From an uncultured Spirochaetota bacterium (GTDB lineage Bacteria > Spirochaetota > Brevinematia > Brevinematales > JAOACQ01), in contig CAVYGN010000002.1 of assembly GCA_963768055.1 (NCBI GenBank), positions 1,376,001-1,440,000 of the forward strand: DNA of 64,000 nucleotides, read 5' to 3'. Positions 1-46,136 of this stretch are shown here, piece by piece. The translations under genes and the position numbers were made by a program. The notes beneath the pieces were generated by a model that did not search any database, was not told the origin of the DNA, and saw nothing but the letters and a program-made list of their open reading frames with translations. How positions within the stretch are numbered: the first letter of the stretch is position 1; the number at the start of each line of letters is the position of its first letter.

Positions 1-798
1 CAATTGCCTTATACCCCCGGCACAGACGGCGCCGGAGTCATTGAAACCGCCGGAAAAGGCGTTACAAGATTCAAACCCGGGGACCGGGTTTATATTGGAA
101 GGTCGGTTTCCGGGACATACGCGGAATACTCCCTGGCCCTCGAGTCCCAGGTCCATCCCCTGCCTGAAAATATAACTTTTTCACAGGGTGCCGGTATTTA
201 TGTTCCGTACGGCACTGCTTTTCATGCCCTGAAACAGGCTTCAAAAGCAGAAAAGGGCGAAACCGTCCTGATCCATGGAGCCAGCGGCGGAGTCGGGATC
301 GCTGCGGTACAAATAGCCGGGGCCATGGGGCTTAAGGTATTTGGAACGGCCGGCACCTCGAAAGGCAGGGAACTTGTAAAAGAGGAGGGAGCGCATGAGG
401 TTTTCGACCATACCCGCGAGGGATATCTGGAAGATATCATGAAAGCATTCGGCGGGAAGGGGATCGATATAATCCTCGAGATGCTCGCTAATGTAAACCT
501 TAGCAATGACCTTAAGCTTCTGGCTATGAACGGCAGGGTAGTAATTGTAGGCAGCAGGGGGGACGCAACTATAACTCCCCGCGACCTGATGGCCAAAAGA
601 GGAAAGGTGATGGGTATGATGCTCTGGAATATTACTTTGGAAGAAGCCGCTGAAATTCATGAGGCCCTGCAGTCGGGACTGGTTAATGGGGCTTTCAGGC
701 CGGTGGTAAGGTGCGAAATGCCTCTTTCCGACGCGGACCGTTCCCACATCGAGGTAATGTCTCCCGGGGCTTACGGAAAGATCGTGCTTATACCATAG
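1..798 (+). CDS. qor: NADPH:quinone reductase (zeta-crystallin/MDR family), 5' truncated by window edge
   Basis: PYTPGTDGAGV, Rossmann VLIHGASGGVGIAAVQ, C-terminal GKIVL; frame is open to position 1. Confidence 0.85.
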   Translation, partial: QLPYTPGTDGAGVIETAGKGVTRFKPGDRVYIGRSVSGTYAEYSLALESQVHPLPENITFSQGAGIYVPYGTAFHALKQASKAEKGETVLIHGASGGVGIAAVQIAGAMGLKVFGTAGTSKGRELVKEEGAHEVFDHTREGYLEDIMKAFGGKGIDIILEMLANVNLSNDLKLLAMNGRVVIVGSRGDATITPRDLMAKRGKVMGMMLWNITLEEAAEIHEALQSGLVNGAFRPVVRCEMPLSDADRSHIEVMSPGAYGKIVLIP

Positions 799-1191: not shown

Positions 1192-2865
1192 ATGCGCAGC
1201 GATCTTGCAAAAAAGGGATTTCAAAGGGCGCCGAACAGATCTTTATTCAGGGCAATGGGTTTCGATGACTGGGAGACAAAGCGCCCGATCATCGGGATCG
1301 CTAATTCTTTCAGTGAATGCATTCCGGGGCATATACACTTGAATAAACTGGCGGACTCCGTGAAAAGGGGGATTTACGCGGCCGGAGGAATGCCGATGGA
1401 ATTTAACACTATAGGCATTTGTGACGGTATAGCAATGGGGCATTCCGGTATGAAGTATTCACTCCCGACCCGCGAACTTATTGCAGATTCTGTCGAATCG
1501 ATGGCGCAGGCCTATCAGTTTGACGGCCTTGTCCTTCTTTCCTCCTGCGATAAGATAATACCGGGTATGATGATCGCCGCGATGAGGCTCAATGTTCCTT
1601 CCATATTCCTGACGGGTGGGCCTATGCTTCCCGGTAATGTAGGTAAAGATAAGGTGCTCGATCTCAATGATGTTTTCGTCGGTGTAGGCAAAAAAGCGAT
1701 AAACGCCATAACAGACGAAGAACTTTACCAGCTTGAATGCGACGCCTGTCCGGGGGCCGGATCATGCGCCGGCATGTTTACCGCGAATACTATGTCGAAC
1801 CTCAGCGAGGCCCTCGGAATAGGTTTATTTTTTAACGGTTCCATTCCTGCTGTATTTTCCGAAAGGGAAATGCTGGCAAAAAAAGCGGGCTGGAAGATCA
1901 TGGAACTCGTCGAAAAAAACATAAAACCCCGCGACATTATGACGCGCAAGGCCTTTGAGAACGCTATAACGCTGGATATGGCCCTGGGAGGGTCGACGAA
2001 TACGGCGCTCCATCTTCCTGCCATCGCTTATTACGGCGATGTCGAACTTGAGCTTAAAGACTTTTCATATTTCTCCCAGAGGGTTCCACACCTTACGAAT
2101 ATGGTCCCCGCAGGCCCGTACAGCATACTCGACCTGTATTACGCGGGGGGCGTACCGGCGGTTCTCTCCGAACTGGCCAAGAAGAAGATGATTCACCTTG
2201 ATACGATAACCGTATCGGGTAAAACCCTTGGCGAGACCCTCAAGGAGTACAAGGCTGAAGTGAAAGATTATGATATCATTCATCCCATCGATAATCCGGT
2301 CCATGAGGCCGGGGGCCTGGCCGTTTTGACCGGGAACCTCGCTCCTGACGGGGCAATAGTCAAACAGGCTGCGGTAGCTCCCGAAATGATGCGCCATAGC
2401 GGCCCTGCAAGGGTATTCGATGATGAGGAAGATGCCGTAAAAGCTATATTGGGCAATAAGATCAAAAAAGGCGATGTTATTGTAATCCGCTACGAGGGCC
2501 CTAAAGGAGGCCCCGGAATGAGAGAAATGCTCTCTCCGACGTCGTCTATTGCGGGAATGGGCATGGACAAAGAGGTCGCTCTTATTACAGACGGCCGTTT
2601 CAGCGGCGCTACAAAGGGAGCGTCTATCGGGCATATATCGCCTGAAGCCGCTGTCGGAGGGCTGATCGGCCTTGTTGAAGAAGGCGATACGATCGAGATC
2701 GATATACCGGGCAAGACCGTTAACCTGAAGGTTTCCGATTCTGTTATAGAAAGTAGAAGGAAAAAATGGGTGCCCCATCCACCGAAAATATTGAACGGGT
2801 ACCTGGCGAGGTATTCAAGGATGGTGACATCCGCCAATAAGGGCGCGGTGTACGATTCGAAGTAG
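1192..2865 (+). CDS. ilvD: Dihydroxy-acid dehydratase
   Basis: [50 protein letters not shown] at 1192 follows AGGAGG. Confidence 0.97.
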
Positions 2866-24526: not shown

Positions 24527-26176
24527 TCAATCCCTTGGCTTGCCATATCTCTTTTCGACGGTTTCGAGAAGATCAGGGATTCCATGGGTATTAAAATATG
24601 TTTTCATTTCCTCATAAACTTCCCTGCTGTTTCCTGATAGCAGGTATGCTGTTATATAGTTATAAACTGCGTCGGGATTTTTAACAATTTCCTGAAACTC
24701 GGCCAGGGCTAGATAATTTCTATACTCTTCAGGATAGACCCACATTATCGAATTTATATAATACGAAGCTTTATTGTAATCATGCAAGGATATGCTATCG
24801 TTAATGATCCTGTTGAAGGCGGCGTCTTCACTCAAACCCGATATCGAGCGGTCTTTAAAGAAAGGGTTTGAAAGGGGGGGCCTTGATACAAAGGGTATCC
24901 GCATTGTGCTGAATGGAGGCTGGGCGGCTAAAGCAATTATAGCATTGTAGGCGTAAAATTCATTGAGGGGTGTAAAAAATATCCTCTTTTTAACATTTTC
25001 CGGGTCATTAAAAAAAGCGGTTAATCTGTTCATTGTCTTTTTATCAAAATGAAAAATATCGGCCAGTTTTCCGGCAAGGATTTGAGCCATTATAATATGC
25101 CCGGTAATATTAAAGTGCACATGGTCGAGGAATATTGTATTTCCAAGGATTCCCGGCCCGTATTTCCCGGTGAGGAGGCCCTGGAGCGGAATAAAATGGT
25201 AATATGGATTTGCTTCCTCACGGTGCGAAGAATAATTCGAAATAGCGGTATAAATTTCGCTTCTGGCGCGGAAGGGTATCACATCGTAATCCCTGGCGGC
25301 GATATAATTCGACAGGCCGGAGCCGTTATTCTTCTCATCAAAGAGCTTCGCTTCCCTATACAAATCGCCGGCCCGGTCTCCTCCGAACGGCGGAAAGTCA
25401 ACAAGGTTGCAGGCAGGTTCGACAACAATTACATGGACTCTCCTGGATGAACAGGCTTTAACGATTATATCGAGGTTTTTTATAAAATCTCCGGCTATGA
25501 GGGCGTCCTTCTCATGGTCCCTGGGTAATGTTTTCCGGTTAAACTGTTCAGCCATCATAGTTGTCTTCCCGTGCATTACCGGCCTGGTCAGATCACCGAA
25601 TAAATTGAATAAAAGCTGAAAAATCCTGAACTCTTTCAGACTGAGATAGAGCTTTTTTATAAAAAAATTCCCGCCTGTCGTCGCGCTTACGGTACCGTAA
25701 TATTCATTATGCCCGGAAAAAATTATTATAAAATCGGGGTCGTAATCGAGGATTTTCAGGGCCGTATCGGCATCGTAAAAGCTTGACATAGCGGAGAATC
25801 CCATATTGAGGATTTCCACTCCGTTGTAATGCCCGGTAGTCCTTAGTGCAGTTTCAAGGACCTTTGAAAAAGAGTGATTTGAATAATAGGGGAATCCCTC
25901 GGCGGTGGAACCGCCGATCACAAACCCGCGCAGGACGCCGTTCATTTTTCTATAAGAGAAAAAGTTCTTGACCGGCTGCTTTGAAAAGTCTATAAAGCGG
26001 TTATAGTACTTGTTCCTGTACTGCCGGTTGTCAATATAAAACTGTCCCATATAAGGGTGCCGGATAAAAGGCTTTGTATCGAACCCCGCGCCTGAGAGTC
26101 TCAAAACGGCTTCAAGGAGGACAAACGCAGAAAGAACAATGAATGTAAATACAGCCGCAAATAAAATCCGCTTCAT
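24527..26176 (-). CDS. Membrane-anchored SGNH/GDSL-fold protein with helical (TPR-like) C-terminus, paralogue 1
   Basis: N-terminal TM (LLEAVLRL), IGGST, GHNE and DHVH matching SGNH blocks I, III and V. Confidence 0.75.
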   Translation of the reverse strand: MKRILFAAVFTFIVLSAFVLLEAVLRLSGAGFDTKPFIRHPYMGQFYIDNRQYRNKYYNRFIDFSKQPVKNFFSYRKMNGVLRGFVIGGSTAEGFPYYSNHSFSKVLETALRTTGHYNGVEILNMGFSAMSSFYDADTALKILDYDPDFIIIFSGHNEYYGTVSATTGGNFFIKKLYLSLKEFRIFQLLFNLFGDLTRPVMHGKTTMMAEQFNRKTLPRDHEKDALIAGDFIKNLDIIVKACSSRRVHVIVVEPACNLVDFPPFGGDRAGDLYREAKLFDEKNNGSGLSNYIAARDYDVIPFRARSEIYTAISNYSSHREEANPYYHFIPLQGLLTGKYGPGILGNTIFLDHVHFNITGHIIMAQILAGKLADIFHFDKKTMNRLTAFFNDPENVKKRIFFTPLNEFYAYNAIIALAAQPPFSTMRIPFVSRPPLSNPFFKDRSISGLSEDAAFNRIINDSISLHDYNKASYYINSIMWVYPEEYRNYLALAEFQEIVKNPDAVYNYITAYLLSGNSREVYEEMKTYFNTHGIPDLLETVEKRYGKPRD

Positions 26177-26781: not shown

Positions 26782-26795
26782 AAACACCCCTGGGG

Positions 26796-29183: not shown

Positions 29184-29723
29184 TTAAAAAGAAAACCCGG
29201 CATTAGCGCCGATAAAAAAAGCCCAGGTTGCATAAAAGCCGTTAGTAATGTCTATCTTGGGCAAAAGTACAAGTTTAGCCGCCGGCTCGAGATAAAATCC
29301 GGATGCATCGTCCAGGATATATTTATATCCCATCTCTATAGGGAGAATGAAATGTATATATGGTACGTTCGTATCCACGTTCAACAAATCCTCCCGTATT
29401 CCCAGGCCAAGGCCTGCCCATGGCCCTGCCAGAGCGTCATATGTGAGATAATACCTGAAACCGCCGTAAATGTAATAAAGCTGGCTGTTGGTAATACCTG
29501 TATATATATTCTGGTAGCCCCCGTCTACGAAAAAGGACAAATTTCCCAGAAAGCAGATCTCGCCAACCAGGCCCGCTCCATAACCGCTGTTAAAGGCCGA
29601 CATCAGCGTATATCCGGTATCTATACCTATCGCGTAATTCTTGAAATTGCCCTCGTAAGAGACGCTGGAAGCGGTCATAACTATGAACAAGGCCGATAAG
29701 CCTGCGAGATATATCTTTTTCAT
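29184..29723 (-). CDS. Small outer-membrane beta-barrel protein
   Basis: Signal peptide, GFRYY and GYKY strands, C-terminal GANAGFSF. Confidence 0.65.
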   Translation of the reverse strand: MKKIYLAGLSALFIVMTASSVSYEGNFKNYAIGIDTGYTLMSAFNSGYGAGLVGEICFLGNLSFFVDGGYQNIYTGITNSQLYYIYGGFRYYLTYDALAGPWAGLGLGIREDLLNVDTNVPYIHFILPIEMGYKYILDDASGFYLEPAAKLVLLPKIDITNGFYATWAFFIGANAGFSF

Positions 29724-29749: not shown

Positions 29750-31531
29750 TTATTGTTTTATTCCGTTCTTTACGGAATCAGCCTCCCAGGGATAAGACAG
29801 CGCAAATTCACCGTATATTTCGGGGTTTTTATCGGATAGAAAATAAGACGTTTCATAAAAATAGACTGTCAGCTGTTTATCGGAACCTGTTTTCCTGTAA
29901 AGCCGGGCAAGGTAGAGGTAAGGCCAGTACGACCCGGGATAAAGTGTCAGGCATGCCATCATATAGTCATGCATTTTCTTGAGAGCATCGTTTCCGCTGC
30001 TGAAGTATTTCAGGATAGTTTCTTCAAAATTCAAAGGGCCTGAGTCGCCTGCGCCGGCCGGAAGACTTGCAATAAGCCTGGCCAGGGCCGGGTCTTCTTT
30101 TATTATAGAGTTATTGGACAGAGCCGACATATCGAATTTATAGGGGATCAGCATTCCACGGTAGGGATAATCTGCCGTAAGTGCATTGACCCGGTGCAGG
30201 GCGAGAATTTCGTTGACGGGAGAAAAATACATGCTCCGTAGAAGGCCTGCTTCGTTCGTAAAGATATTAGACATGCGGGAAATCATAGCGGGTCCGAGCT
30301 GAAATATCTGAGCTATTTTATCGGCCAGGATTTGAGCCACGGCTAATTGCCCCTTCATATTGAAATGAACATGTTCGGCGAAAATGGCGTTCCCGAAGGC
30401 CCTTTCGCCGTAACGGTTGGTCAGTTCGTCAAATAAAGGAATATAATAAAGATTGGGATAGATTTTTGAGTTTTTGATGATGTAATCCCTTAAACTATTA
30501 ATAAGGGTGCTCCTGGCCCGGAACGGGACCGTATCGAGGTCTTTTGCCGTAATAAGGCCGGGAATGACCGAGTTCGTCCAGAGGACCGACCTGTACAGGC
30601 TGTCAAGGTAAGATATGTTGGCGTTGCAGTCATATTCGCCGTGTTTTATCCTCTCGTTGTATATTGAAGCCATAAGTTTTTTATCTTTAGTCAGATATGT
30701 TTTGTAATACTCCGCGATAAAATTTGAATAAATATCATCCTTCTCACCGGCGAAGGGCGGCAGGTCGTAAAGATTGCAGACCGGTTCCATAATTATAACG
30801 GGTATATTTTTGTCCTTATAGATCCTCACGACCTCGTCGATGTTCTCAATAAAATCATTCGCGACCCTGCCGTCCGCAGCATCGTTTTTCAGGAAGTGCC
30901 TGCTTTTAGAAAGTGTTTCCATGAGGGTCCTTCTGCCCTTGTCGGCCTGCACCGGCAGAATTGAAAATATGAGCTGGAAGATTTTGAACTCTTTAAGCCC
31001 CAGAAACATTTTTTTTAAAAAACGTCCGCCTCCCGTCGATGAACTTACCGTCCCGAAATATTCGTTATGGCCTGCGTATATTATAATGAAGTCGGGGTCG
31101 TAGGCGAGTGCTTTTCTTGCCGCGTCGCTTACATAGTAACTGGACATGGCTGTGTAGCTGAGGTTGACGATCTCAAAAGCCTGCCTGTTCTCGCTCCAGT
31201 TCAGGGCGTTTTCGGCAATCTTCCCGAAGGCGTTATTCGATTCGAAGGGGTAACCCTGCGGGGTGGATTCGCCGATAAGAAAGCCCCTGCCATGACTCTT
31301 ATTCGAGTCGAACATGTTCTTTCTGCGAAGGGAGCTGTAACTTCTTGTTTCAGTAGTGTATTTATTAAGGAAATCATAATTGTCCACATATACCGACTGG
31401 TAGAAAGCGGGCTTTACAAAGGGCCTCGTGTCGTAACCGTAATGGAAAAGCCTGAGAACAAGTTCAAAACAAACGAGAACGGCAAGTATCATAGCTATAT
31501 ACGTTATAAGAAACAGGCTTTTTTTACCCAT
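29750..31531 (-). CDS. Membrane-anchored SGNH/GDSL-fold protein with TPR-like C-terminus, paralogue 2
   Basis: FELVLRL anchor, IGEST, GHNE, EHVH; colinear similarity to 24527-26176. Confidence 0.75.
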   Translation of the reverse strand: MGKKSLFLITYIAMILAVLVCFELVLRLFHYGYDTRPFVKPAFYQSVYVDNYDFLNKYTTETRSYSSLRRKNMFDSNKSHGRGFLIGESTPQGYPFESNNAFGKIAENALNWSENRQAFEIVNLSYTAMSSYYVSDAARKALAYDPDFIIIYAGHNEYFGTVSSSTGGGRFLKKMFLGLKEFKIFQLIFSILPVQADKGRRTLMETLSKSRHFLKNDAADGRVANDFIENIDEVVRIYKDKNIPVIIMEPVCNLYDLPPFAGEKDDIYSNFIAEYYKTYLTKDKKLMASIYNERIKHGEYDCNANISYLDSLYRSVLWTNSVIPGLITAKDLDTVPFRARSTLINSLRDYIIKNSKIYPNLYYIPLFDELTNRYGERAFGNAIFAEHVHFNMKGQLAVAQILADKIAQIFQLGPAMISRMSNIFTNEAGLLRSMYFSPVNEILALHRVNALTADYPYRGMLIPYKFDMSALSNNSIIKEDPALARLIASLPAGAGDSGPLNFEETILKYFSSGNDALKKMHDYMMACLTLYPGSYWPYLYLARLYRKTGSDKQLTVYFYETSYFLSDKNPEIYGEFALSYPWEADSVKNGIKQ

Positions 31532-31754
31532 CAAGTTTCTCCTTACATATGAAAAGGAATGCGAACTTTCATTATATTGATTTCATCACATTGTGTCAAA
31601 TAAGAGTCAATTAAATGATTTTGCAATGACAAATTTCGAATGATGAAGGGGAATTTAATAATTCATACTATTAATATGAGTGAAATAATACTAAAAGTCT
31701 ATATAATTTTTTATATTTATTTTTATAATAAAAAAAGATTGTTGTATAATATTA

Positions 31755-31800
31755 GGGCGCTTCTAAAAACCGCCTTTATCAAGGCGGATAGGTAGCGCCC
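31755..31800 (+). repeat. Structured repeat family B, copy 3
   Basis: GGGCGCTTCTAAAAACC-GCCTTTATCAAGGC-GGATAGGTAGCGCCC. Confidence 0.75.
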
Positions 31801-31892
31801 ATAGGGCAAATTTTAAGAATTATTATGTCGATCATTAACAACGATATTAGTTATTGGATTGCCCATTAATAAATTTTTTATAGGAGGAACTA

Positions 31893-32489
31893 ATGGAGAA
31901 AGTTATGAAGTTAGGGACTGCGGTTCTCTGCTTCGCAGTGATGCTGGCTTTCGTGTCATGCGGAGGCGCGAAAGGGGCCGCTGAAAAGCTGGGCGACGAA
32001 ATAGTCAAGACCGGCATGTTTCCGGACGGCAGCGTCACTAACTACGGCATCTACAATGCCTTTTCTCAGCAGGTAAAGGACGATCTTACCGGGAAATGGG
32101 GCCTTCTGCAGGCATTACCCGGCAAGGGGCATTTTGAAGTTACGGGAGGCGTATGCAAGGTTATTATCGATTCTCCCGGCAGCGCTACCTATATGGTTCA
32201 GCTCTGTTATTTTCCCTGCCCCATCAAATTCGGAAAACCTTTTAAAGTCTCTTTCGACGCCAAGGCCGACTCTCCCAGAAAGATAGAAATGAAGGTCGGC
32301 AGGATTGCAGGCGACTGGCTCGCATATTCCGGAAATAAAACTTATGATTTGACCACGGACTGGCAGACTTTTTCTTTCGTGTTCAAATCCCTTGGGACAG
32401 ACGATTCAGCCAGATTTGAATTCGAATGCGCAAATGATAAGCCTTCCATGTATTTCCGCAATGTCAGCATGAAACCTGTATTGGAATAA
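31893..32489 (+). CDS. Lipoprotein with carbohydrate-binding module (CBM4/9-like)
   Basis: FVSC lipobox; VQL...G..FKVSFDAKA..PR.I...LTTDWQTFSF..ARFEF...YFRNVS. Confidence 0.75.
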   Translation: MEKVMKLGTAVLCFAVMLAFVSCGGAKGAAEKLGDEIVKTGMFPDGSVTNYGIYNAFSQQVKDDLTGKWGLLQALPGKGHFEVTGGVCKVIIDSPGSATYMVQLCYFPCPIKFGKPFKVSFDAKADSPRKIEMKVGRIAGDWLAYSGNKTYDLTTDWQTFSFVFKSLGTDDSARFEFECANDKPSMYFRNVSMKPVLE

Positions 32490-32537
32490 CGGGAGTAGTC
32501 TAGGGGGAATTAATTATCTACAGATAGATTTAAAAAG

Positions 32538-32567
32538 CGGAAACCTTAACCGGTTTCCGTTTTTTTT
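32538..32567 (+). terminator. Intrinsic terminator
   Basis: CGGAAACC-loop-GGTTTCCG followed by T8. Confidence 0.85.
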
Positions 32568-32701
32568 CAATTGATGGGAGCTTCCCTTCGGGAAATAGTA
32601 ATTTGAATTATCAGGATTGCCCTTGATACTTTGATTTTTTTTTTGTGTTCAGGCATACTTTTTCAAAGTTAAAAAGTTTTTATTCAAAAAAGAGGCCTGA
32701 A

Positions 32702-33361
32702 ATGATATCTAACAGCAATCCCGCCGGGTCCACGGCCGAGCTAAGGCTCGAAAATATTCCCGCCATCATTTTCGAAACCGATTTGAACCTCAATATTTTA
32801 TATATCAATTCAACTGGCAGGGCGGTACTTAGACTTTCGGAATTGCCGAATAAAGGCGGCTGTTCCCTGCTTGAATTCGTGCACCGCGACGACAGGCCGG
32901 TCTTAAGGGATTATTGCTCGAGGCTGGCCGGCGGCGGGCCGGGAAATATCATTGTTTTCAGAATATCAGGGGGGGACAAAACTCTCACGGCTATCCTTTG
33001 CAAAGCGGCCCTCACTTCCGGAAGCACTGTAATAAGAAGCATACTATGGAACGCAATGGACCTGAGAGAGATTGCCGATTTTATCACGATCCCGGCAGAA
33101 AGTTTTTTCATAGTTTACAAGCTGAGCCCCCGGGAAAGGGAGGTCTTAAAATTAATGCTGACGGGATATAAAACAAGAGAAATTGCACGAACTCTATTCA
33201 TAACCGAAAGCACGGTTAAAAATCATATAAGCGCAATTTATTCGGCTGTAGGCGTTAAAAACAAGGATGGTTTGTTCAACGTCCTGAAAGACTACCAGGC
33301 CTCAAAATTCGGCCGGGAATCTTTCGTGTTTTCCGCTTTATCGAGCCTTCTCAAAGATTAG
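32702..33361 (+). CDS. PAS domain + LuxR-type HTH transcriptional regulator
   Basis: IIFETD..ILYIN, FVHRDD (PAS); LSPREREVL...EIARTLFITESTVKNHISAIY (LuxR HTH). Confidence 0.85.
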   Translation: MISNSNPAGSTAELRLENIPAIIFETDLNLNILYINSTGRAVLRLSELPNKGGCSLLEFVHRDDRPVLRDYCSRLAGGGPGNIIVFRISGGDKTLTAILCKAALTSGSTVIRSILWNAMDLREIADFITIPAESFFIVYKLSPREREVLKLMLTGYKTREIARTLFITESTVKNHISAIYSAVGVKNKDGLFNVLKDYQASKFGRESFVFSALSSLLKD

Positions 33362-33437
33362 AGGGCTGTCTGCTCAAGAATAGCACCTTTTGCCTTATGG
33401 TGCGTTTGCGCCCGTAGGGCCCGCAGGGAGAAGCGCA

Positions 33438-33830
33438 CTAATACAATTTTACGATCCTTGAAGTGCTGTTATCCTTTTCGCCTACCTCTGCCCATCCGGG
33501 AAATAATGAGTTTTCCCTTATTTTGTCATGTGAAGTGAGCCTTAAAATTACAGCTATCGGGGTGAAGAAGAGGAAATACACGATTGTAAAAATTGAATTA
33601 GTAATTATTATTCCTATTATTCTGCCAGCGGTTTTCAGGACTATGAAAGATGGTACGGTGCCCCTGTAAAAAAAAATCCCGCAAAATAAATGATACAAAG
33701 ATAAAATGAGGGCCGAAAGTGTCAAAATAAGCGGGAAACCTTTCAAAATCGAAATTGCACAAAAAATTGCCATCCCGGCGGAAAACGAATAAGCGAAATT
33801 TCTTAATCCTTTAAAAGGGTTTTTTTCCAT
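33438..33830 (-). CDS. SxtJ-family membrane protein
   Basis: LRNF start, TM segments, IVYFLFFTPIAVILRL..HD motif; overlaps the carbamoyltransferase stop. Confidence 0.75.
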   Translation of the reverse strand: MEKNPFKGLRNFAYSFSAGMAIFCAISILKGFPLILTLSALILSLYHLFCGIFFYRGTVPSFIVLKTAGRIIGIIITNSIFTIVYFLFFTPIAVILRLTSHDKIRENSLFPGWAEVGEKDNSTSRIVKLY

Positions 33831-35623
33831 TTACGGTACTCCTTATTCAAAGGCTGGTCTTTCTTATATAATAAATAATGGCCGATCGCCAGGATATCGA
33901 TGTTTGTGCCCATGAAGCAGCGGTAGGCGTCTGAAGGGCAGGCTACGATAGGTTCACCCCGCACATTGAAACTGGTATTGATCATGAGGGGGCAGCCGCT
34001 GATTCTTTCGAATTCTTTCAAAAGACTGTAAAATAAATTGTTTGTATCTTTTGAGACAGTCTGCAGCCTTGCTGTGTTATCAAGGTGGGTCACAGCGGGA
34101 ATAACCGAACGTTTCACCTTCAAAAGTTCCAGGCCCTTTTTGCCGGACGTATCCGCGTTTAAAAGCCTGTCCTTCCTGACCCTTGCAGTGAAGAGCATAT
34201 AGGGAGAGGCCTTTTTACATTCGAAATAGTCCCGGGATTTTTCCTCGAGGACCGATGGAGCAAAAGGCCTGAAAGACTCGCGGAATTTAATTTTTAAATT
34301 CATTGTGCTCTGCATATCTTCAGAACGCGCGTCACCAAGAATAGAACGGTTCCCGAGGGCCCTCGGCCCGAATTCCATCCTTCCCTGGAACCAGCCTATA
34401 ACCCTGAGCGATTTTATTTCATCAGCTACTGTTCTTATCAATTCGCTGTCCGTCACCTTTTTATAAACGGCCCCGTAACCTTTAAGGACTTCCTCAATGG
34501 CGACATCGGAATATGATGGCCCCAGGCAGGACCCTTTCTGAAGATCGTTTTTTTCATCCGCGTTTCTTTTATTGCCCAGGTAACAGTAATGAACGTAAAG
34601 AGCGGCGCCTAAAGCGCCCCCCGCATCCCCGGCGGCGGGCTGTACCCATATGTCGTCAAAGAGCCCCTCTTCCATTATATATGAGTTCGCGACACAATTC
34701 AAACCGACCCCCCCGGCGATGCAGAGTTTGTTCATCCCGGTGATTTTCTTCGCATATGCGGCAATGCTGACAAGAGTTTCGTTGAAGTATTCCTGTATCG
34801 ACGCCGCAACGTCCATATAGAACTGGTCGGGCGCGACATCGGGGGAAAGGGCTTTTCTTCCAAAAAGCTTTTCGAATTTTGTACTGACCATACGGAGTCC
34901 CGAAATATAGTCGAAGTATTTTTCATTCAATAGAAAAGAACCCTCGCCGGAGGTCCTGACCAGTTCTTTTTTTATCAAATCAAGATACACAGGCTTGCCG
35001 TACGGGGCCAGTCCCATTAATTTATATTCCCCTGAATTGACCCTGAAGCCGCAGTAATATGTGAAAGCCGAATAGAGCAGCCCCAGTGAATTGGGGAATT
35101 CAATTTTTTTCAGGAGTTTAATTGAATTACCCTCACCGACTCCGATTGCCGTAGTCGTCCATTCCCCGGCTCCGTCCAGGGTGATTATGGCGGCTTTATG
35201 ATACGGCGATGGAAGGAAAGCGCTGGCGGCATGGGATTGATGGTGTTCTGTAAATAATATATCCCTCTTATACCCCAATTCTTTTTTTATTACATCTTCA
35301 ACCCAGAGCTTCGATTTGAGCCACATAGGAACGGCCTGAAGAAAAGACATCAGTCCTTTTGGAGCCCGGTGTATATACCCTGCCAGGATCCTGTCGAACT
35401 TCAAAACAGGCTTGTCGTAAAAAACCACATGGTCTAGTTCGGAGGCTTTTAGGCCCCCTTCCGAAAGGCAGTAATCGACCGCTCCGGAGGGGAATGACGA
35501 ATCGCCCTTCCTGCGGGAAAAGCGCTCTTCCTGTGCGGCGGCTATTATTTCTCCGTCTTGCACTAGACTAGCCGCTGAATCATGGTAAAAAGCCGAAATG
35601 CCCAGGACTTTAACGCTAGCCAT
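33803..35623 (-). CDS. O-carbamoyltransferase (NodU/CmcH/SxtI family)
   Basis: YHDSAA, EERFSR, EHHQSHAASAF, DGAGE, EYKLMGLAPYG, AGGVGLNC, GPRALGNRS, KFRESFRPFAP, NTSFN. Confidence 0.95.
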   Translation of the reverse strand: MASVKVLGISAFYHDSAASLVQDGEIIAAAQEERFSRRKGDSSFPSGAVDYCLSEGGLKASELDHVVFYDKPVLKFDRILAGYIHRAPKGLMSFLQAVPMWLKSKLWVEDVIKKELGYKRDILFTEHHQSHAASAFLPSPYHKAAIITLDGAGEWTTTAIGVGEGNSIKLLKKIEFPNSLGLLYSAFTYYCGFRVNSGEYKLMGLAPYGKPVYLDLIKKELVRTSGEGSFLLNEKYFDYISGLRMVSTKFEKLFGRKALSPDVAPDQFYMDVAASIQEYFNETLVSIAAYAKKITGMNKLCIAGGVGLNCVANSYIMEEGLFDDIWVQPAAGDAGGALGAALYVHYCYLGNKRNADEKNDLQKGSCLGPSYSDVAIEEVLKGYGAVYKKVTDSELIRTVADEIKSLRVIGWFQGRMEFGPRALGNRSILGDARSEDMQSTMNLKIKFRESFRPFAPSVLEEKSRDYFECKKASPYMLFTARVRKDRLLNADTSGKKGLELLKVKRSVIPAVTHLDNTARLQTVSKDTNNLFYSLLKEFERISGCPLMINTSFNVRGEPIVACPSDAYRCFMGTNIDILAIGHYLLYKKDQPLNKEYRKWKKTLLKD

Positions 35624-35629
35624 TGCGTA

Positions 35630-35788
35630 TCAAAAAAGGGAATAAATAAAAGGCGCCAGGGCTTGCGACTGGGAAATAAGCACGGCTACGCCGACAAGAA
35701 AAAGTATTATCAGCAGGGGTATCAGCCAAAGTTTTTTATTTTCCCGGATATATTGAAAAAATTCTTTTACAAGGCGTGTTTTTGACAT
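35630..35788 (-). CDS. 52-aa single-TM peptide, DUF5989/SxtK-like (MSKTRLVKEFFQYIRENKKLWLIPLLIILFLVGVAVLISQSQALAPFIYSLF)
   Basis: Read directly from the minus strand; GGAGGT RBS; KK.WL.P-TM-APFIY.LF; 6 nt before the carbamoyltransferase ATG; absent from the ORF track. Confidence 0.85.
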   Translation of the reverse strand: MSKTRLVKEFFQYIRENKKLWLIPLLIILFLVGVAVLISQSQALAPFIYSLF

Positions 35789-35956
35789 CCCGATTACCTC
35801 CCGTATTCGTTTCCTGCTGGAAATTTAAAGATAGATTTTAGAGGGAGGGCGGATATATTTCAAATTATTGAAAACTCGATGTAAATTTCAAATAACTCAC
35901 TCATCTTGACTTTTTCCATAATTCAAGTAAACTTAATTTAATATTGGAGGGTAATA

Positions 35957-37405
35957 ATGTTTAAAAAACAATTATTTCTTATAATACCGTTATTCATAGG
36001 CGTTTTATTGCCGCTGACGTCATGCCAGTCATTAATACCCCCCAATATCCATCCGGGGTCTTCTTCTTCAAGCCAATCCAGTTCTTCAAGTTCATCGTCT
36101 TCATTCATTGTTACTTTTGACAGCCAGGGGGCAACTGTAGCGGCGAATCCGTCCAGCATAGTCGTAACAACCCCGGCAACGACGGTCGGCGCTCTTCCGA
36201 TTGCGCCGTTTAAAAAAGGCTATACCTTTGCCGGCTGGTATACGGTGCCCGGGGGCGGAGGAACGCAATTTACATCCAGTACAATTGTTAAAGCGGATAT
36301 TACCCTTTTCGCTTATTGGAGCCCTAATCCGGTTTATACGGTGACATATGACAGCCAGGGCGGGTCGGCCGTCGGATCGCAATTTGTGACCCAGCCCGCG
36401 ACAACTGTCGTTGCATTGCCGACAGCGCCGACTTTAACAGCATTTTTCTTCAATGGCTGGTTTACCCTGCCGAACGGAGGCGGGAAGGCATTTACGTCAA
36501 CTACAGTTGTTACGGCGAATATAACGGTTTATGCATACTGGAAAGCTTCGGGATCTGTCTGGAGGCCGGGATTCCTCCCGAATGCCACAGGCTGGACTTC
36601 GGTAACCTACGGGAACCCCTTAGGAGTCCCCACATTTGTCGCGGTCGGGTTGAACGAAGCTGCGACATCGCCCGACGGGATTACCTGGACGAGCCAACCC
36701 ATTCCCGCCGGCAGCTGGACTTCGGTAACTTACGGGAACAACCAATTTGTCGCTGTCGGAGCCAACCAGGCGGCGACATCTCCCGACGGTATAAACTGGA
36801 CGGCACAATTTGGCATTCCTGTTCAGGCTTGGTCGTCGGTAGCTTTCGGAAACAATATTTATTTCGCCGTTTCCAGCGCCAATGTTACAACCGGGGTTTC
36901 ATCTCCTGACGGGATAATCTGGACGTCAAGAAGTCTCGGCGGGCCTCTTGATAACTGGTTTGTAGTAGCGTACGGCGTCCCGGGTTTTATCGCAATCGGC
37001 GGGATTCCCGGGAATTCCAGTTCACTCGATGGAATAGGCTGGACCGGTATAAACACCCTGGCAGCCGCGGGGACGGGGTGGACTTCGGCAGCTTATGGGA
37101 ACGGAATTTTTATCGCTGTTGCCGGAAACACAAGTATATCGGCGATATCGCCCGACGGGGGGACCACTTGGTCGTATGCCAACTCCATTCCTTTAGGCAA
37201 CTGGACTTCTGTAACATTCGGCAACGGCGTTTTTGTCGCTGTCGCGACCGGCGGCACTCTTGCGGCGACATCACCAAACGGGACGGTATGGACGCCGCAA
37301 ACCCTTCCGTTTAATACTAGCTGGGTTTCTGTCACCTGGGGCAACGGTATATTCGCAGCGATTGCCAACAATTTACCAGCTCAAAATGCGGCAGCCTCGT
37401 ATTGA
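35957..37405 (+). CDS. Surface lipoprotein with two InlB B-repeat (Listeria-Bacteroides repeat) domains and a WxxVxYGN beta-propeller
   Basis: LTSC lipobox, poly-Ser linker, two VT(F/Y)DSQG...F.GW.T...GG..F...IT..AYW units, repeated WTSVTYGN..FVAV..SPDG..W. Confidence 0.8.
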   Translation: MFKKQLFLIIPLFIGVLLPLTSCQSLIPPNIHPGSSSSSQSSSSSSSSSFIVTFDSQGATVAANPSSIVVTTPATTVGALPIAPFKKGYTFAGWYTVPGGGGTQFTSSTIVKADITLFAYWSPNPVYTVTYDSQGGSAVGSQFVTQPATTVVALPTAPTLTAFFFNGWFTLPNGGGKAFTSTTVVTANITVYAYWKASGSVWRPGFLPNATGWTSVTYGNPLGVPTFVAVGLNEAATSPDGITWTSQPIPAGSWTSVTYGNNQFVAVGANQAATSPDGINWTAQFGIPVQAWSSVAFGNNIYFAVSSANVTTGVSSPDGIIWTSRSLGGPLDNWFVVAYGVPGFIAIGGIPGNSSSLDGIGWTGINTLAAAGTGWTSAAYGNGIFIAVAGNTSISAISPDGGTTWSYANSIPLGNWTSVTFGNGVFVAVATGGTLAATSPNGTVWTPQTLPFNTSWVSVTWGNGIFAAIANNLPAQNAAASY

Positions 37406-39308: not shown

Positions 39309-39896
39309 ATGCGTTTCACTATCGCTTCGGTGTTTTTATTATGGATTATGATATTTTCACAGGTATTCACTCAAAGTGAAACCAATACTAATTCTAATAT
39401 CAACGGTTTCGGGATAGGGATCAACGCCGAATTTAATTGGAACCAGCTTCCCAATGATAATAGAATTGGAATATCGGCGAACACTCCCTTCTTTCTGGAC
39501 CGCTGGGTGGCGCTGAGGTTTGAAGCCGACTATGGACTTATAAGGGGAATACCCGCAACCAATACTTTATCGAATTCTATCTGGGCTAATTATTATGCCT
39601 TTAAAGCAGGAATAGTCGTTGCGGCTAACAGGAGATCGGATATTATAAGGCCTTTTATCGAGACAGGATTTATCTACATCATTCCAAACAGTTCGTTTAC
39701 AAGCGATACTTCCGCATGGGGCATATACGGGGTCTTCGGACTCGATGTAATTTTTCCCGGCGACTTTTCAGGCTACTTTTTTGAAATAGGGGGGACGGGC
39801 CTGCTTTCGCCCGGCGGATATGCGGACCAATATAAGGGTCTTATGCCATATGCAACGGGTTTGAATATAGTGCTCGGCTGGCGTTTTTATTTATGA
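39309..39896 (+). CDS. Outer-membrane beta-barrel hypothetical protein
   Basis: Signal peptide, GFGIG and amphipathic strands, C-terminal LGWRFYL; start after GGAGG. Confidence 0.65.
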   Translation: MRFTIASVFLLWIMIFSQVFTQSETNTNSNINGFGIGINAEFNWNQLPNDNRIGISANTPFFLDRWVALRFEADYGLIRGIPATNTLSNSIWANYYAFKAGIVVAANRRSDIIRPFIETGFIYIIPNSSFTSDTSAWGIYGVFGLDVIFPGDFSGYFFEIGGTGLLSPGGYADQYKGLMPYATGLNIVLGWRFYL

Positions 39897-40906
39897 AAGG
39901 TAAGAAAACAGCGGTTTTCAGGGACATTTTACACAATTATAACGAATTGAAAGAAGCTTCCGATTTGATCAAAAACGGAGGAACCGTAGTATTTCCGACT
40001 GAAACCGTTTACGGGCTCGGAGCGGATGCATACAACAGCGAGGCTGTTAGAAAAATTTTTCTTGCCAAGGGGAGGCCGCCGGATAATCCCCTTATAACCC
40101 ATATCGCAGATATCGATGATCTTCATCTCACAGCTTCAGATATACCAGCGGCGGCTTATTTTCTTTTCGAGAAATTTTCACCGGGTCCTTTGACCCTGAT
40201 CCTGAAAAAAAACGACCGCATTTCAGACCTGGCCACGGCCGGGCTTTCAACTGTTGCGGTAAGAATACCCTCTCATGCCGCTGCACGTGCTCTGATTAAA
40301 TCAAGCGGCGTGCCTATCGCGGCTCCCTCGGCGAACAGGTCCGGCCGGCCAAGCCCCACTACATTCGATATGACTATGACCGATATGGATGGAAGAGTTG
40401 ACGCCGTTATCGACGGGGGCGACTGTGAAATAGGGCTCGAATCTACAGTAATTCTGATAAAAGAAAAGTCGATCGGGATCGTCCGGCCCGGGGCCGTAAC
40501 GGAAGAAATGATTGAAAGATCTATCGAATCACTTCCCGGTTATAAAATTATGCATTCCTATTTAAAGAAAAAGGAACCGGTATCCCCGGGAATGAAATAT
40601 ATTCATTATAAACCGAAAGCGGAGGTCTACCTGTCATTAAATGCCGATATTGATAAGATTACCGGAAATTTTCCGGGAAAAAAGGTCGGCGTCATCTCAA
40701 TCGGGGACGTATCTATATATAGATCGAAACCGGAGGTTCTCAGTTTCGGGACCCTTGGCGAATACGCAAGGGGGCTTTACAAAAGTTTCACTATGCTCGA
40801 CGGCCTCGGGTGCGATATCATAGTGGCCCAAACGGTTGAGCAGAAAGGTCTCGGCAGGGCTATTATGAACCGCCTGAACAAGGCAAGCGGCGGGAAAACG
40901 ATATGA
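39893..40906 (+). CDS. sua5: L-threonylcarbamoyladenylate synthase (Sua5 type)
   Basis: PTETVYGLGA, KGRPPDNPLI.H, PSANRSG, G.ESTV, PGMKY.HY, AIMNRL.KA. Confidence 0.95.
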   Translation: MKGKKTAVFRDILHNYNELKEASDLIKNGGTVVFPTETVYGLGADAYNSEAVRKIFLAKGRPPDNPLITHIADIDDLHLTASDIPAAAYFLFEKFSPGPLTLILKKNDRISDLATAGLSTVAVRIPSHAAARALIKSSGVPIAAPSANRSGRPSPTTFDMTMTDMDGRVDAVIDGGDCEIGLESTVILIKEKSIGIVRPGAVTEEMIERSIESLPGYKIMHSYLKKKEPVSPGMKYIHYKPKAEVYLSLNADIDKITGNFPGKKVGVISIGDVSIYRSKPEVLSFGTLGEYARGLYKSFTMLDGLGCDIIVAQTVEQKGLGRAIMNRLNKASGGKTI

Positions 40907-40919
40907 GGAGGAATCCCTT

Positions 40920-41131
40920 ATGGGCGCCGGGCAGGAAAAAACGATACCATTTTCACCCCCTGATATTACAGCTATTCGATCGATCTTCCGGGATATAAAT
41001 ACAATATGACCGATATACAGGCCGCGCTGGGAATAGTCCAGTTATCAAGATATGAAAATCTGCGCGAAGAGGACGCCCGTCTGGTTTGCAGCGAACTGTG
41101 CGGGGCGCTTGAAAAGGTGCTTGGCGAATGA
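40920..41131 (+). pseudogene. Relic of a DegT/DnrJ/EryC1/StrS sugar aminotransferase
   Basis: GAGGAGG-ATG...IPFSPPDIT in one frame, then LPGYKYNMTDIQAALGIVQLSR and a C-terminal-like helix in another frame, ending in an ATGA overlap with tsaD. Confidence 0.8.
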
Positions 41132-44075: not shown

Positions 44076-46136
44076 ATGACAAGCGATAAAATGAAGAAAA
44101 TAGACTGGAAGCCTGTACTGCTTGACGCGTTAAAGGAATCGTTCGTAAGGCTCAACCCTTACCTCATGCTGAGGAATATAGTCATGTTCGTCGTGGAATT
44201 AGGTGCTATAGTTACAACCATCATTACTATAGTCAATATTATAAATAGCCAGCCTTATTCATTTAACCTCAATATCAGCCTGTGGCTGTGGTTTACAGTG
44301 GTCTTTTCAAACTTCGCCGAGGCTGTCGCGGAAAGCCGGGGAAAGGCGCAGACAGAGGCCCTTAAAAGCACCCGGAGCACGCTTACAGCCGGCAAGGTTG
44401 CCGAAAAATCCACAATCGACAATCCCGGGGAAATAACGGAAGTTCCGGCGCTAAATCTGAAGAAGGGCGATTATATCCTTATCAGGAAGGGCGAACTTAT
44501 AGCCGGTGACGGCGAGATAGTACAGGGCACGGCCCTTGTGGATGAATCGGCTATTACCGGCGAATCGGCCCCCGTTATAAGGGAATCGGGCGGGGACAGG
44601 AGCGGCGTCACGGGCGGCACGCGTATTATCGAAGGGACCCTGAAAGTGGAAATTACCACCAACCCCGGGGAAAGTTTCCTGGACACGATGATCTCGATGG
44701 TGGAAAGCGCTAAAAGGCAAAAAACGCCTAACGAGATAGCCCTTGAAATCCTTCTTATAGCTCTTACGATACTTTTCATAGTTGTAGTCGGAACTTTGAT
44801 CCCTTATGATAAATATACCGGGGTCACCGGGGTTTACGTGGGCATTCCGGTTTTAATCTCTCTGCTCGTTTGTCTTATGCCTACAACAATCGGGGCGCTG
44901 CTCCCGGCTATAGGTATCGCCGGCATGGACAGGCTTATTGAAAAAAATGTTATTGCGTTTTCAGGCCGGGCGGTGGAAGCGTCGGGGGATGTAAGCATAG
45001 TTCTCCTTGATAAAACAGGAACAATAACCCTTGGGAACCGTATGGCCAAAAAATTCATACCCGCCGACGGCGTTTCAATGGAAGAACTTGCCAGGAAAGC
45101 CCTTTACGCCTCCCTGGCTGATGAAACGCCGGAAGGGAGAAGCATATTAGGCCTTGCAAAAGAAACCCTCAATATAAGAGGCAGGGATATTACCGACTAT
45201 GACCACTATAAATTCATCCCCTTTACTCCCGAGAGCAGGATGAGCGGTGTGGATATGAACGGCGTCCAGGTCTGGAAGGGTTCGTTTGAAGCAATTGAAG
45301 AGCATATAACATCCAGGGGCGGAAAAGTACCCGGCGAGGTCAAAGCAAGCGTGAGGTCCATATCGGAAAAGGGAGGCACCCCGCTGGTCGTTGCCGAGGA
45401 AAAGAGGGTCCTCGGAGTCATCCGGCTTACAGACATACTGAAGGTCGGGATCAGCGAGAGGCTCACGCACCTTCGTAAAATGGGCATCAAATCCGTTATG
45501 ATCACAGGCGACAACCAGCTGACCGCTGCATCGATAGCTGCCGAAGCGGGTATCGACGATTTTGTGGCCCAGGCCAGGCCCGAGGCGAAGCTTGAATTGA
45601 TACGCAAATACCAGGCCGAGGGTTACCTCGTGGCTATGATCGGCGACGGAACGAACGACGCCCCGGCGCTTGCCCAGGCTGATGTTGCCGTTGCGATGAA
45701 CGCGGGCACCCAGGTGGCCAGGGAGGCGTCCAACATGATCGACCTCGATTCGAACCCCACCAAACTCCTCGATATCGTCGAAATAGGCAAGGAAATCCTG
45801 ATAACTAGGGGAGCCATGACCACTTTCAGTATTGCCAACGACGTATCCAAATACTTCGCAATCGTACCGGCAATGTTCATGGTCGCTTTCCCGGCGCTCG
45901 GGTTTTTGAATATAATGCAATTATCAACTCCTTTATCTGCCGTGCTTTCTGCCGTCATTTTCAACGCTATAATTATTCCTATGCTGATCCCGCTTTCGCT
46001 TCGGGGAGTTAAATATAAAACCCAGTCTCCCGCGTCGCTTCTGGCAAGAAATCTTTTGATTTATGGTCTTGGCGGCGTGATACTGCCTTTCCCCGGGATC
46101 AAGCTCATCGACATGATCCTGAATTTGTTTAAATAG
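44076..46136 (+). CDS. kdpB: K+-transporting ATPase subunit B
   Basis: TGES, PTTIG, DKTGT, TGDN, GDGTND. Confidence 0.97.

Follow-up and report, generated by a model that had tools for sequence, protein, structure and literature searches.

A DUF5989 microprotein encoded with a carbamoyltransferase and an SxtJ-family membrane protein: a candidate tyrosine-carbamate shuttle for envelope glycans

Three adjoining genes were analysed in a 64,000-nt stretch of DNA (the window) from an uncultured Spirochaetota bacterium of the order Brevinematales (GCA_963768055.1, contig CAVYGN010000002.1, positions 1,376,001 to 1,440,000). They encode a 52-aa microprotein of the DUF5989/SxtK type, an O-carbamoyltransferase (CT) of the NodU/CmcH/TobZ type and a small membrane protein of the SxtJ family. 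We are confident that the trio stands at least for a carbamoylation module of envelope glycans that is widespread, membrane-associated and uncharacterised. In about half of the cases a membrane-anchored SGNH enzyme is encoded with it. A more specific reading, argued by analogy with known acylation systems and in our view falling just short of an even chance, is that the trio would be the core of a widespread, MBOAT-independent module in which a tyrosine carbamate serves as shuttle for the carbamoylation of envelope glycans.

The initial annotation had described a single-pass peptide ending APFIYSLF-stop, followed 6 nt later by a NodU/CmcH-type CT and an overlapping SxtJ-like protein, and this description is upheld by the open reading frames (ORFs), their translations and coordinates and the family matches (Table 1). 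The peptide ORF (MSKTR...ISQSQALAPFIYSLF) ends ALAPFIYSLF in front of a TGA stop, from which the ATG of the CT gene is separated by TACGCA, and the 3' end of the CT ORF overlaps the SxtJ ORF by 28 nt. A GGAGG Shine-Dalgarno sequence is found upstream of the peptide ATG, and no obvious one precedes the CT start. Two overlapping sigma-70-like matches (10/12 each, a weak match to the consensus) lie upstream of the peptide gene at 35835..35891 (-), in a region with 14 such sites versus 8.7 +/- 2.8 in shuffles. An Rfam search of 31400-36200 matched no family, a phage search gave no match and a composition check found nothing unusual.

The peptide matches Pfam DUF5989 (PF19451) with 71.4 bits against a cut-off of 27, covering model positions 2-49 of 49, and its closest named relatives belong to Brevinematales/Brevinematia and Thermospira. 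When 1.84 billion representatives were scanned, 2231 representative clusters (50% identity) matched the peptide at E<=1e-3. Conservation of the C-terminal motif was counted on the 150 best representatives, independently of the set of loci described below; the loci were fetched with two patterns from a 13-sequence alignment, one of them the motif itself, so that the 80/80 motif count in the loci is circular. Among the 150, the terminus is exactly FxYxxF in 134, the motif is present anywhere in 141 and the tyrosine is kept in every one. The 16 representatives without the exact terminal motif comprise seven with an internal motif (read-through or frameshift products) and nine variants (PFMYTPS, ALYGQ, IIYTLF etc.). 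In the logo of the 134 exact-motif representatives the last 11 residues read S-A-[LVI]-A-P-F-I-Y-[TSA]-[LI]-F, with P, F, Y and the terminal F fixed in all of them, and conservation within the peptide family is highest in this tail. F-x-Y-x-x-F is thus common to the DUF5989 termini and those of DltX and MBOAT proteins, as the initial annotation had anticipated.

In family peptides of 49-52 aa a basic N-terminal side is followed by one transmembrane (TM) helix and by an outer tail of some 12 residues without charge. Over the first 20 aa the net charge averages +2.8, and charged side chains are absent from the last 12 aa in 134/134 representatives. Residues 4-17 form an amphipathic helix, whose hydrophobic moment of 0.72 was reached by 18/2000 shuffles, and K18, K19, W21, P24 and the mid-helix G33 are conserved in or at the TM helix (KK-W-L-x-P at its start). 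An N-in/C-out orientation had been proposed from the two lysines before the helix of the window peptide, and the charge distribution favours the same predicted topology family-wide. Judged by these features, the DUF5989 family is a single-pass microprotein, predicted N-in/C-out, whose outer tail bears the tyrosine motif. Longer, fused forms of the peptide were not found, which is weak evidence; where representatives are long, this is mostly due to ORFs extended upstream, and P0057, which contains part of SxtJ and the peptide, is an apparent read-through or frameshift. Two orphan DUF5989 peptides (loci L015 and L051) have the motif intact and neither CT, SxtJ nor SGNH within 10 kb.

The motif has only three fixed residues and DltX homology is lacking, so one might ask if the likeness is due to chance in a small ORF without a specific role. 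We give this explanation almost no credence, as it has to account for 2231 clusters, for the exact terminus in 134/150 and for an SxtJ gene on the same strand at a distance of <=130 nt from the peptide in 61 of 76 loci. In addition, an FxYxxF end is seen in only 2/9594 other six-frame ORFs from these loci, one of the two being a genuine MBOAT tail, and the composition-based expectation for such an end is 4e-5 per protein.

Relatives of the peptide were located at >=534 sites in species-representative genomes, of which the best 80 were kept and, together with the window, analysed as 81 loci spanning >11 phyla. A CT is a neighbour in 71/81 loci and in 45/48 of those with >=9 kb on both sides; the corresponding counts are 76/81 and 46/48 for SxtJ, and 41/81 and 27/48 for an SGNH-like family made up of two related clusters. 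The three genes occur in the orders CT-J-K, J-K-CT, CT-K-J and K-CT-J (J, SxtJ; K, peptide). The carrying organisms include SAR11, Trichodesmium, rhizobia, Flavobacteria, Acidobacteriota, bacteria of the candidate phyla radiation and Methanosarcinales. A LuxR/GerE regulator was considered as a general neighbour and dropped, being present in only 1/81 loci and on rhizobial plasmids.

In 30 of the 41 SGNH loci the SGNH gene lies inside the trio or <=600 bp away (binomial P 1.8e-26 under uniform placement). These 30 loci come from Spirochaetota, Acidobacteriota, Planctomycetota, Bacteroidota, Gemmatimonadota, Desulfobacterota, Pseudomonadota (SAR11, Magnetococcales and one gammaproteobacterium), Methylomirabilota, Patescibacteria, Bacillota and Cyanobacteriota. 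The SGNH ORF starts at the peptide stop in five loci, and in two (L059, L049) the SGNH gene stands between CT/SxtJ and the peptide. In the nearest relative of the window (L001) peptide, CT, SxtJ and SGNH follow each other on one strand, and this SGNH protein is the ortholog of a 594-aa protein of the window. The count of 41 includes one locus (L037) whose SGNH belongs to an MBOAT, and a GDSL neighbour missed by the hidden Markov models (HMMs) in another locus (L017) comes in addition. The proposed genomic link to SGNH proteins is strong in about half of the loci and in their close spacing; it does not extend to the 21/48 full-flank loci in which no SGNH gene is found in cis.

Two cyanobacterial loci connect the small proteins with SGNH enzymes in a different way. 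In Trichodesmium erythraeum IMS101 (NC_008312.1; L052, 9563-17031) four SGNH paralogs, each about 400 aa long, stand in tandem after SxtJ and the peptide, and with them a 451-aa protein for which no relative was found in the PDB; no CT is present in the 20 kb examined. A similar locus (L078) likewise has SxtJ, the peptide and tandem SGNH paralogs, three to four in the two loci, and no CT within reach. This ties SxtJ and the peptide to SGNH proteins and not just to the CT.

Polysaccharide and envelope genes recur around the module: GT2 glycosyltransferases (22 loci), NAD-epimerases (15), DegT aminotransferases, methyltransferases, Wzz/tyrosine kinases and GT4 enzymes, and further Wzy_C, Wzx-type flippases, PMT_2, exosortase and an archaeal STT3. 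Genes for the large and small chains of carbamoyl-phosphate synthase lie directly beside the module in two loci (L034, 5552-9463; L069, 6479-7501), which is consistent with a dedicated supply of carbamoyl phosphate. In two metagenome-assembled Methanosarcinales genomes (L067 and L079) peptide, SxtJ and CT are found in archaea, with no SGNH seen in the stretches examined; in the first of these the trio is near an STT3/AglB-type oligosaccharyltransferase and a GT9 gene.

The absence of an MBOAT from the window, stated in the initial annotation, was confirmed by a Pfam scan of 44 of the 47 ORFs >=200 aa, which found neither MBOAT nor Acyl_transf_3 (AT3); of the other three ORFs, one (1..798) is a duplicate start and two (2065..2778- and 45147..45920-) run antisense to genes that matched strongly. 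For the other loci, polytopic ORFs of >=280 aa with >=6 hydrophobic windows were considered; 61 of 69 candidates were scanned, the other eight being duplicates of transporter clusters, and AT3 was found in none of the 61. By Pfam scan and jackhmmer 80/81 loci are without MBOAT. The exception (L037, 2686-5181 (+)) has an SGNH gene and behind it an MBOAT that an in-frame stop divides, at a distance of 5-7 kb to the trio, and this MBOAT is paired with its own SGNH; a jackhmmer search of the loci with it found no further MBOAT. The C-terminal part (L037:4399-5181; Pfam MBOAT E 6.2e-25) ends QPFIYFQF and shares P-F-I-Y-x-x-F with the APFIYTLF of the peptide, and the locus served as a positive control from within the set, for the motif as well as for the SGNH profile.

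The window contains two SGNH-TPR paralogs, 1.9 kb and 7.3 kb downstream of the trio. Relatives of the 594-aa protein are named SGNH/GDSL hydrolase or lysophospholipase L1-like esterase in the sources. It stays below both Pfam GDSL cut-offs (21.8 versus 32.9 and 20 versus 23.6 bits). G88, S90, G94, N124, D148, G155, N157, E158, H390 and G395, which correspond to SGNH blocks I, II, III and V and include the catalytic Ser and His and the oxyanion residues, are invariant in 46 aligned sequences, and the C-terminal third is TPR. A hydrophobic N-terminal anchor precedes block I in 46/50 family members and often ends E-x-x-(L/V)-R; because of this anchor and the basic extreme N-terminus the catalytic domain is predicted to face outward. 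Of 49 members compared with Pfam, 37 match Lipase_GDSL_2 (E<=0.01), 30 Lipase_GDSL and six ALGX, the AlgX SGNH-like acetyltransferase, and PF16822 occurs in 15-54% of members of the Atlas neighbours of a Trichodesmium SGNH protein. The HMM of 27 shorter family members recognises the SGNH next to the L037 MBOAT with E 1.3e-23, and a hhalign comparison of the window-type profile with the same protein is weak (38.6% probability). The family is, by these comparisons, a catalytically intact, anchored group related to MBOAT partners, with sequences that would suit a transferase as well as an esterase. The 594-aa protein is a candidate for the extracytoplasmic enzyme that would receive the peptide's carbamoyl group and transfer it to a glycan.

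The 606-aa CT matches Carbam_trans_N (Kae1-like, E 4.9e-95) and Carbam_trans_C (YrdC-like, E 2.5e-70). Among solved structures it is related to NovN, GdmN and TobZ (E 2.5e-87 to 1.9e-72), and with 168.4 bits it is far below the cut-off of 1000 of the NCBIfam NodU equivalog NF041651. The stand-alone CTs TobZ, NovN, GdmN, NodU and WapO are the same two-domain enzyme, to our knowledge without SxtJ or DUF5989 partners, and we know of no need for membrane partners in soluble CTs such as TobZ, NovN and GdmN. In contrast, 47 trio-type CTs have a conserved segment of their own at window residues 68-107 (FYDKPFLKFERLLETYLAFAPxGFxSFxxAMPxWLKEKLF), which contains an 8-aa insertion relative to NovN/GdmN. 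This amphipathic segment could be a docking site on SxtJ. An apparent CT-SxtJ fusion (L031) was discarded as a frameshifted ORF whose CT part matches only piecewise. Genes for t6A synthesis, Sua5/TsaC and TsaD, the stand-alone relatives of the YrdC-like and Kae1-like domains of the CT, lie 4-6 kb from the CT gene, probably by coincidence.

The 130-aa product of the third gene reaches 18 bits (E 0.0049) with Pfam SxtJ (PF19588), below the cut-off of 24.4. An HMM of 66 SxtJ ORFs that adjoin DUF5989 peptides elsewhere, members of which exceed the Pfam cut-off (L024, 39.9 bits; L052, 54.1 bits), matches it with E 4.6e-16, and because of this match the window protein is classified as a divergent SxtJ. 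An AlphaFold2 model made with 65 sequences (pLDDT 89.2) has helices at 5-30 and 34-53 and a long helix at 55-98, so that the predicted layout has two TM helices first, next a long helix of interfacial or hydrophobic character, and at the end a basic tail. Conservation of >=90% is confined to W65 and P91, with R97, GxDxL and a YW pair at 70-88%. Readings of SxtJ as Oxa1-like insertase or as MBOAT-like protein were given up, since no fold relative supports either.

Taken together, the following sequence of steps is proposed. The cytoplasmic CT would make carbamoyl-AMP from carbamoyl phosphate and ATP, a reaction established for NodU/TobZ-type enzymes. SxtJ and the amphipathic N-terminal helix of the peptide may hold the CT at the inner membrane face, where it would carbamoylate the invariant tyrosine (Tyr49 in the window) of the PFIYxLF tail. 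On the outer face, much as in DltX-DltD and PatA-PatB, the tail would offer the tyrosine O-carbamate to the SGNH(-TPR) protein at its Ser/His site; aryl carbamates do carbamoylate the active-site serine of serine hydrolases. The SGNH protein may then hand the group to a polysaccharide under export, as the gene neighbourhoods suggest. Loading of the tyrosine is conceivable in two ways. It could take place in situ, if an oligomeric assembly of SxtJ and peptide allows tail and CT to meet, or the 52-aa peptide could be loaded in the cytoplasm before insertion. With 12 residues between the end of the TM helix and the C-terminus, insertion of the peptide has to be post-translational, which makes loading before insertion possible; the carrier would then be single-use unless it is recycled.

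According to PMC12148441, bacteria acylate polymers with either of two systems, MBOAT/SGNH or AT3-SGNH, which both work via an acyl-tyrosine; the paper gives FXYXXF for the C-termini of DltX and MBOAT proteins, with FIYANF in NgPatA. DltX of L. plantarum has 49 aa and contacts DltD through TM-TM and tail-pocket interactions (PMC13653941, in part). The Dlt system (DltA/DltC, the MBOAT DltB, DltX and the SGNH protein DltD) resembles the module in its single-pass microprotein of about 50 aa with an extracytoplasmic C-terminal FxYxxF, its cytoplasmic adenylate-forming activating enzyme and its N-terminally anchored SGNH partner. However, the module has neither MBOAT nor carrier protein, the group would be carbamoyl and not D-alanyl, the loader would be a Kae1/YrdC-type CT with SxtJ, DUF5989 and DltX are not detectably homologous, and SGNH is in cis in only about half of the loci. 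The last two helices of PatA and DltX share their architecture with the DUF5989 peptide, as far as they are described in the consulted parts of PMC12148441 and PMC13653941. PatA/PatB, AlgI/AlgJ/AlgX and WssH/WssI have a terminal PFIYxxF-type tail after a TM helix, related SGNH partners and a polysaccharide-export context, represented in the window by TPR, outer-membrane beta-barrel and CBM proteins. Unlike in these MBOAT-SGNH systems, the motif of the module is on a free microprotein and not fused to an MBOAT, and the donor is not acyl-CoA; within the same partial text of PMC12148441, MBOAT pathways other than Dlt are without a DltX-like microprotein. AT3-SGNH proteins (OatA, OafA) also use transmembrane transfer via a tyrosine intermediate to an SGNH domain (same source), but their tyrosine is in a loop and not at the terminus, and as said no AT3 was found in the window or among the polytopic neighbours. 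No paper was found that uses the term DUF5989 or that links DUF5989, SxtK or carbamoyltransferases to a tyrosine-shuttle mechanism. Among the matches listed, FXYXXF appeared only in versions of the PatA/PatB paper, and none of those listed for SGNH/MBOAT topics mentions a carbamoyltransferase.

Several observations weigh against a tyrosine-carbamate shuttle, and the first concern the membrane step. The initial annotation had suggested that CT and SxtJ would take the place of the MBOAT, and for SxtJ this is not supported. The alignment contains no conserved His, Ser, Cys or Tyr, and the SxtJ model gave 0 matches to PDB folds at E<=1e-3. Over 65 sequences the mean number of K+R is 4.1 in the N-terminus, 0.6 in the 4-residue loop, 2.2 in the middle segment and 8.4 in the C-tail; because of these counts N-terminus, middle segment and C-tail look cytoplasmic, with about 4 aa outside, and the third hydrophobic stretch is probably interfacial. 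SxtJ therefore looks like a scaffold at the cytoplasmic face, neither catalyst nor obvious conduit: without an invariant nucleophile or His, with about four residues outside and no fold relative, nothing is visible in it that would carry a group across the membrane. The tyrosine is predicted outside and the CT inside, so that loading would have to cross the membrane, and the outer tail, with nine residues from the end of the TM helix to the tyrosine, is too short to reach a cytoplasmic active site in the predicted topology.

Other counterpoints concern the peptide and the SGNH proteins. No DltX family is among the Pfam matches of the peptide at E<=10, no DltX chain is among the PDB matches of peptide or family-profile queries, and an Atlas search found no look-alike clusters outside PF19451. 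Since homology of DUF5989 to DltX is not detectable, convergence may account for the motif; the two are alike in motif and architecture, not demonstrably by descent. The window SGNH domain alone had no match in the PDB. In profile searches the SGNH family scores nearer to ordinary GDSL esterases than to AlgJ/AlgX/PatB: for the profile of 27 shorter members GDSL esterases are best (2.8e-18), followed by AlgJ (1.2e-10), AlgX (7.5e-7) and PatB1 (1.9e-3). Within 10 kb, SGNH is missing from 21/48 full-flank loci, and two planctomycete plasmid loci have a cytoplasmic-type sugar O-acetyltransferase instead of SGNH. The ORFs of the loci were called crudely from six frames, and families were assigned with local HMMs.

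In the main rival explanation SxtJ and the peptide only tether the CT to the inner membrane face. The CT would then carbamoylate a lipid-linked sugar, or a small molecule in sxt clusters, directly; the tail would serve structure or assembly, and the SGNH protein would act separately on the exported polymer, e.g., as esterase or as decarbamoylase, the function proposed for SxtL in the consulted parts of PMC2679770 and PMC2885083. An SxtJ that resembles a cytoplasmic-face anchor without catalytic residues, the shared amphipathic CT segment able to dock on it, the loci without SGNH, the esterase-like SGNH profiles and the decarbamoylase proposal for SxtL all speak for such a tether. However, it leaves three things unexplained: conservation in the peptide peaks in the extracytoplasmic tail, which has an invariant tyrosine and a motif identical to the acyl-shuttle motif; SxtJ and peptide accompany three to four SGNH paralogs with no CT near (L052, L078); and the SGNH gene frequently adjoins the trio or lies within it. 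In addition, WapO (PA5005) carbamoylates the membrane-bound lipopolysaccharide core, and it is listed in PA5001-5006 with no such small membrane partner named in the accessible portion of PMC8005017. We consider the tether rather unlikely. Set against it, the invariant outer tail, the loci without CT and WapO without partners make the shuttle the best-supported reading.

A further possibility is that the CT carbamoylates a polyprenyl-phosphate-type carrier, that SxtJ and the peptide form a small flippase pair, for which GtrA and ArnE/F are small-flippase analogies, and that SGNH transfers the group outside, with no acylation of the tyrosine. Small multi-helix membrane proteins beside a cytoplasmic activating enzyme and an outward-facing transferase would be in keeping with it, as would the genes of lipid-linked donors (PMT_2/GT-C, Wzy/Wzx) that are common neighbours. 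Yet SxtJ has no homology or fold match to any flippase, the invariant terminal tyrosine motif is left unexplained, and SGNH enzymes are known to accept acyl groups from tyrosine esters (PMC12148441, in the text available), whereas a lipid-carbamate donor was not found in the literature consulted. This route appears improbable.

The trio consists of the same three families as SxtI, SxtJ and SxtK of saxitoxin clusters. There sxtK has 165 bp, sxtJ 405 bp and the GDSL-type sxtL 1281 bp, and in the T3 cluster the protein accessions of SxtI, J, K and L are consecutive (PMC2679770, Table 2 and other parts consulted), which fits a four-gene module. SxtJ and SxtK are uncharacterised and presumed to work with SxtI, and SxtL as decarbamoylase is a proposal without a test, according to the portions available of PMC2679770 and PMC2885083 and, for SxtJ and SxtK, of a 2026 bioRxiv preprint; this agrees with the earlier remark that J and K had no assigned mechanism. 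The assignment of the trio to a small-molecule substrate in these clusters (PMC2679770, in part) is another point against glycan carbamoylation through a shuttle. Both SxtJ and SxtK owe their family names to saxitoxin clusters, so that tailoring of a secondary metabolite, saxitoxin-like or by antibiotic carbamoylation, was considered for the window as well. In difference to sxt clusters with their small alkaloid substrate, the window has no other sxt-type genes: its 44 scanned ORFs match only housekeeping, transport, regulatory and envelope Pfam families, with no polyketide-synthase, amidinotransferase or other biosynthetic-cluster match, and the neighbours across the 81 loci are glycan and envelope genes. 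We regard metabolite tailoring as very improbable here. It is tentatively suggested, with somewhat less assurance than for the shuttle module as such, that DUF5989/SxtK would be the carrier of a third, MBOAT- and AT3-independent transmembrane route, in which CT and SxtJ make the tyrosine O-carbamate and SGNH discharges it onto envelope glycans; by extension sxtJ, sxtK and sxtL might encode the same machine, with SxtL as final carbamoyl transferase and not as decarbamoylase.

The surroundings of the trio in the window are compiled in Table 1. Two lipoproteins and two probable outer-membrane beta-barrels stand between the SGNH-TPR paralogs, and a CBM_4_9 lipoprotein and a PAS-GerE regulator between the trio and the 594-aa SGNH gene. 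The combination of TPR, SGNH, CBM and outer-membrane-type genes resembles a locus for polymer export and modification, and the layout recalls TPR/porin/SGNH polymer-export loci such as that of alginate. The SGNH-TPR gene is closely preceded by a perfect 12/12 sigma-70 consensus (TTGACA-17-TATAAT). On the other side of the trio a divergent secreted protein is encoded.

Table 1. Features of the window (the trio first, then the SGNH-TPR genes and the other features named in the text).
Feature	Position	Strand	Remarks
DUF5989/SxtK-type microprotein	35630..35788	-	52 aa; Pfam DUF5989 E 6.2e-20
NodU/CmcH/TobZ-type O-carbamoyltransferase (CT)	33803..35623	-	606 aa; predicted cytoplasmic; Carbam_trans_N + Carbam_trans_C
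SxtJ-family small membrane protein	33438..33830	-	130 aa; match to locus-built HMM
Membrane-anchored SGNH hydrolase-fold protein with C-terminal TPR	29750..31534	-	594 aa; invariant SGNH blocks
Second SGNH-TPR paralog	24527..26176	-	549 aa; 36% identity to 594-aa paralog
Lipoprotein	26176-26787	-	no Pfam match
Lipoprotein	26796-27401	-	no Pfam match
Probable outer-membrane beta-barrel	27501-29051	-	516 aa; ends GIKF; no Pfam match
Small OMP-like protein, probable outer-membrane beta-barrel	29184-29723	-	179 aa; no Pfam match
Sigma-70 consensus	31599-31571	-	12/12
CBM_4_9 lipoprotein	31893-32489	+	absent at that place in L001
PAS-GerE (LuxR-type) regulator	32645-33361	+	absent at that place in L001
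Divergent secreted protein	35957-37405	+	482 aa; Ser-rich linker, Listeria-Bacteroides repeats, many short 'WTS..YG' type repeats
Sua5/TsaC	39893-40906	+	t6A synthesis
TsaD	41128-42162	+	t6A synthesis

The module is also present on plasmids. A tblastn search with a typical family member (P0122) returned 49 plasmid records, mostly pSymB-type replicons of Sinorhizobium/Ensifer; the window's own peptide had no match in plasmid records. RefSeq labels the trio 'carbamoyltransferase / SxtJ family membrane protein / DUF5989 family protein', and the PGAP-annotated plasmid modules of Ensifer/Sinorhizobium agree with the SGNH linkage. In Ensifer canadensis histidine kinase, response regulator, GDSL, SxtJ, DUF5989, CT and GT4 genes follow each other on one strand.

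On pSymB of Sinorhizobium meliloti 1021 (NC_003078.1, 482210-486412; L081) the four-gene module corresponds to SM_b20469-20472, with gene coordinates confirmed by Dataset EV1 of PMC7268258. SM_b20469 is the SGNH protein (HMM 1.2e-19 on the ABS7 ortholog, L082; Pfam GDSL_2 1.2e-7, ALGX 8.9e-4), SM_b20470 the SxtJ (HMM 4e-31 on the ABS7 ortholog), SM_b20471 a 49-aa DUF5989 peptide ending APFIYTLF (Pfam E 1.1e-24) and SM_b20472 the NodU-type CT with Carbam_trans_N and Carbam_trans_C. The module is about 6 kb from a galE-GT-DUF995-GH26-DUF995 polysaccharide cluster and adjoins a LuxR-type response regulator. A transposon-sequencing study names SM_b20472 arcB2, an ornithine carbamoyltransferase, and lists it as symbiosis gene (PMC7268258). 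According to its table 59 insertions were recovered versus 44.6 expected, therefore the symbiosis call rests on a gap statistic. To judge from its domains and neighbours, SM_b20472 is in fact the NodU-type enzyme of an SGNH/SxtJ/DUF5989/CT module and not an ornithine carbamoyltransferase.

If the shuttle is real, and we would put the chance at slightly under one half, the module is a variant of the tyrosine-shuttle/SGNH principle. It would then be a third route beside the two described for the acylation of extracytoplasmic polymers, and the first for the carbamoyl group; DUF5989, SxtJ and a sizeable group of anchored SGNH(-TPR) proteins would thereby gain a function. It would also provide a mechanism for SxtJ and SxtK, which has been open since the description of the sxt cluster. 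As the four genes lie together in the model bacterium S. meliloti 1021, the proposal is directly testable.

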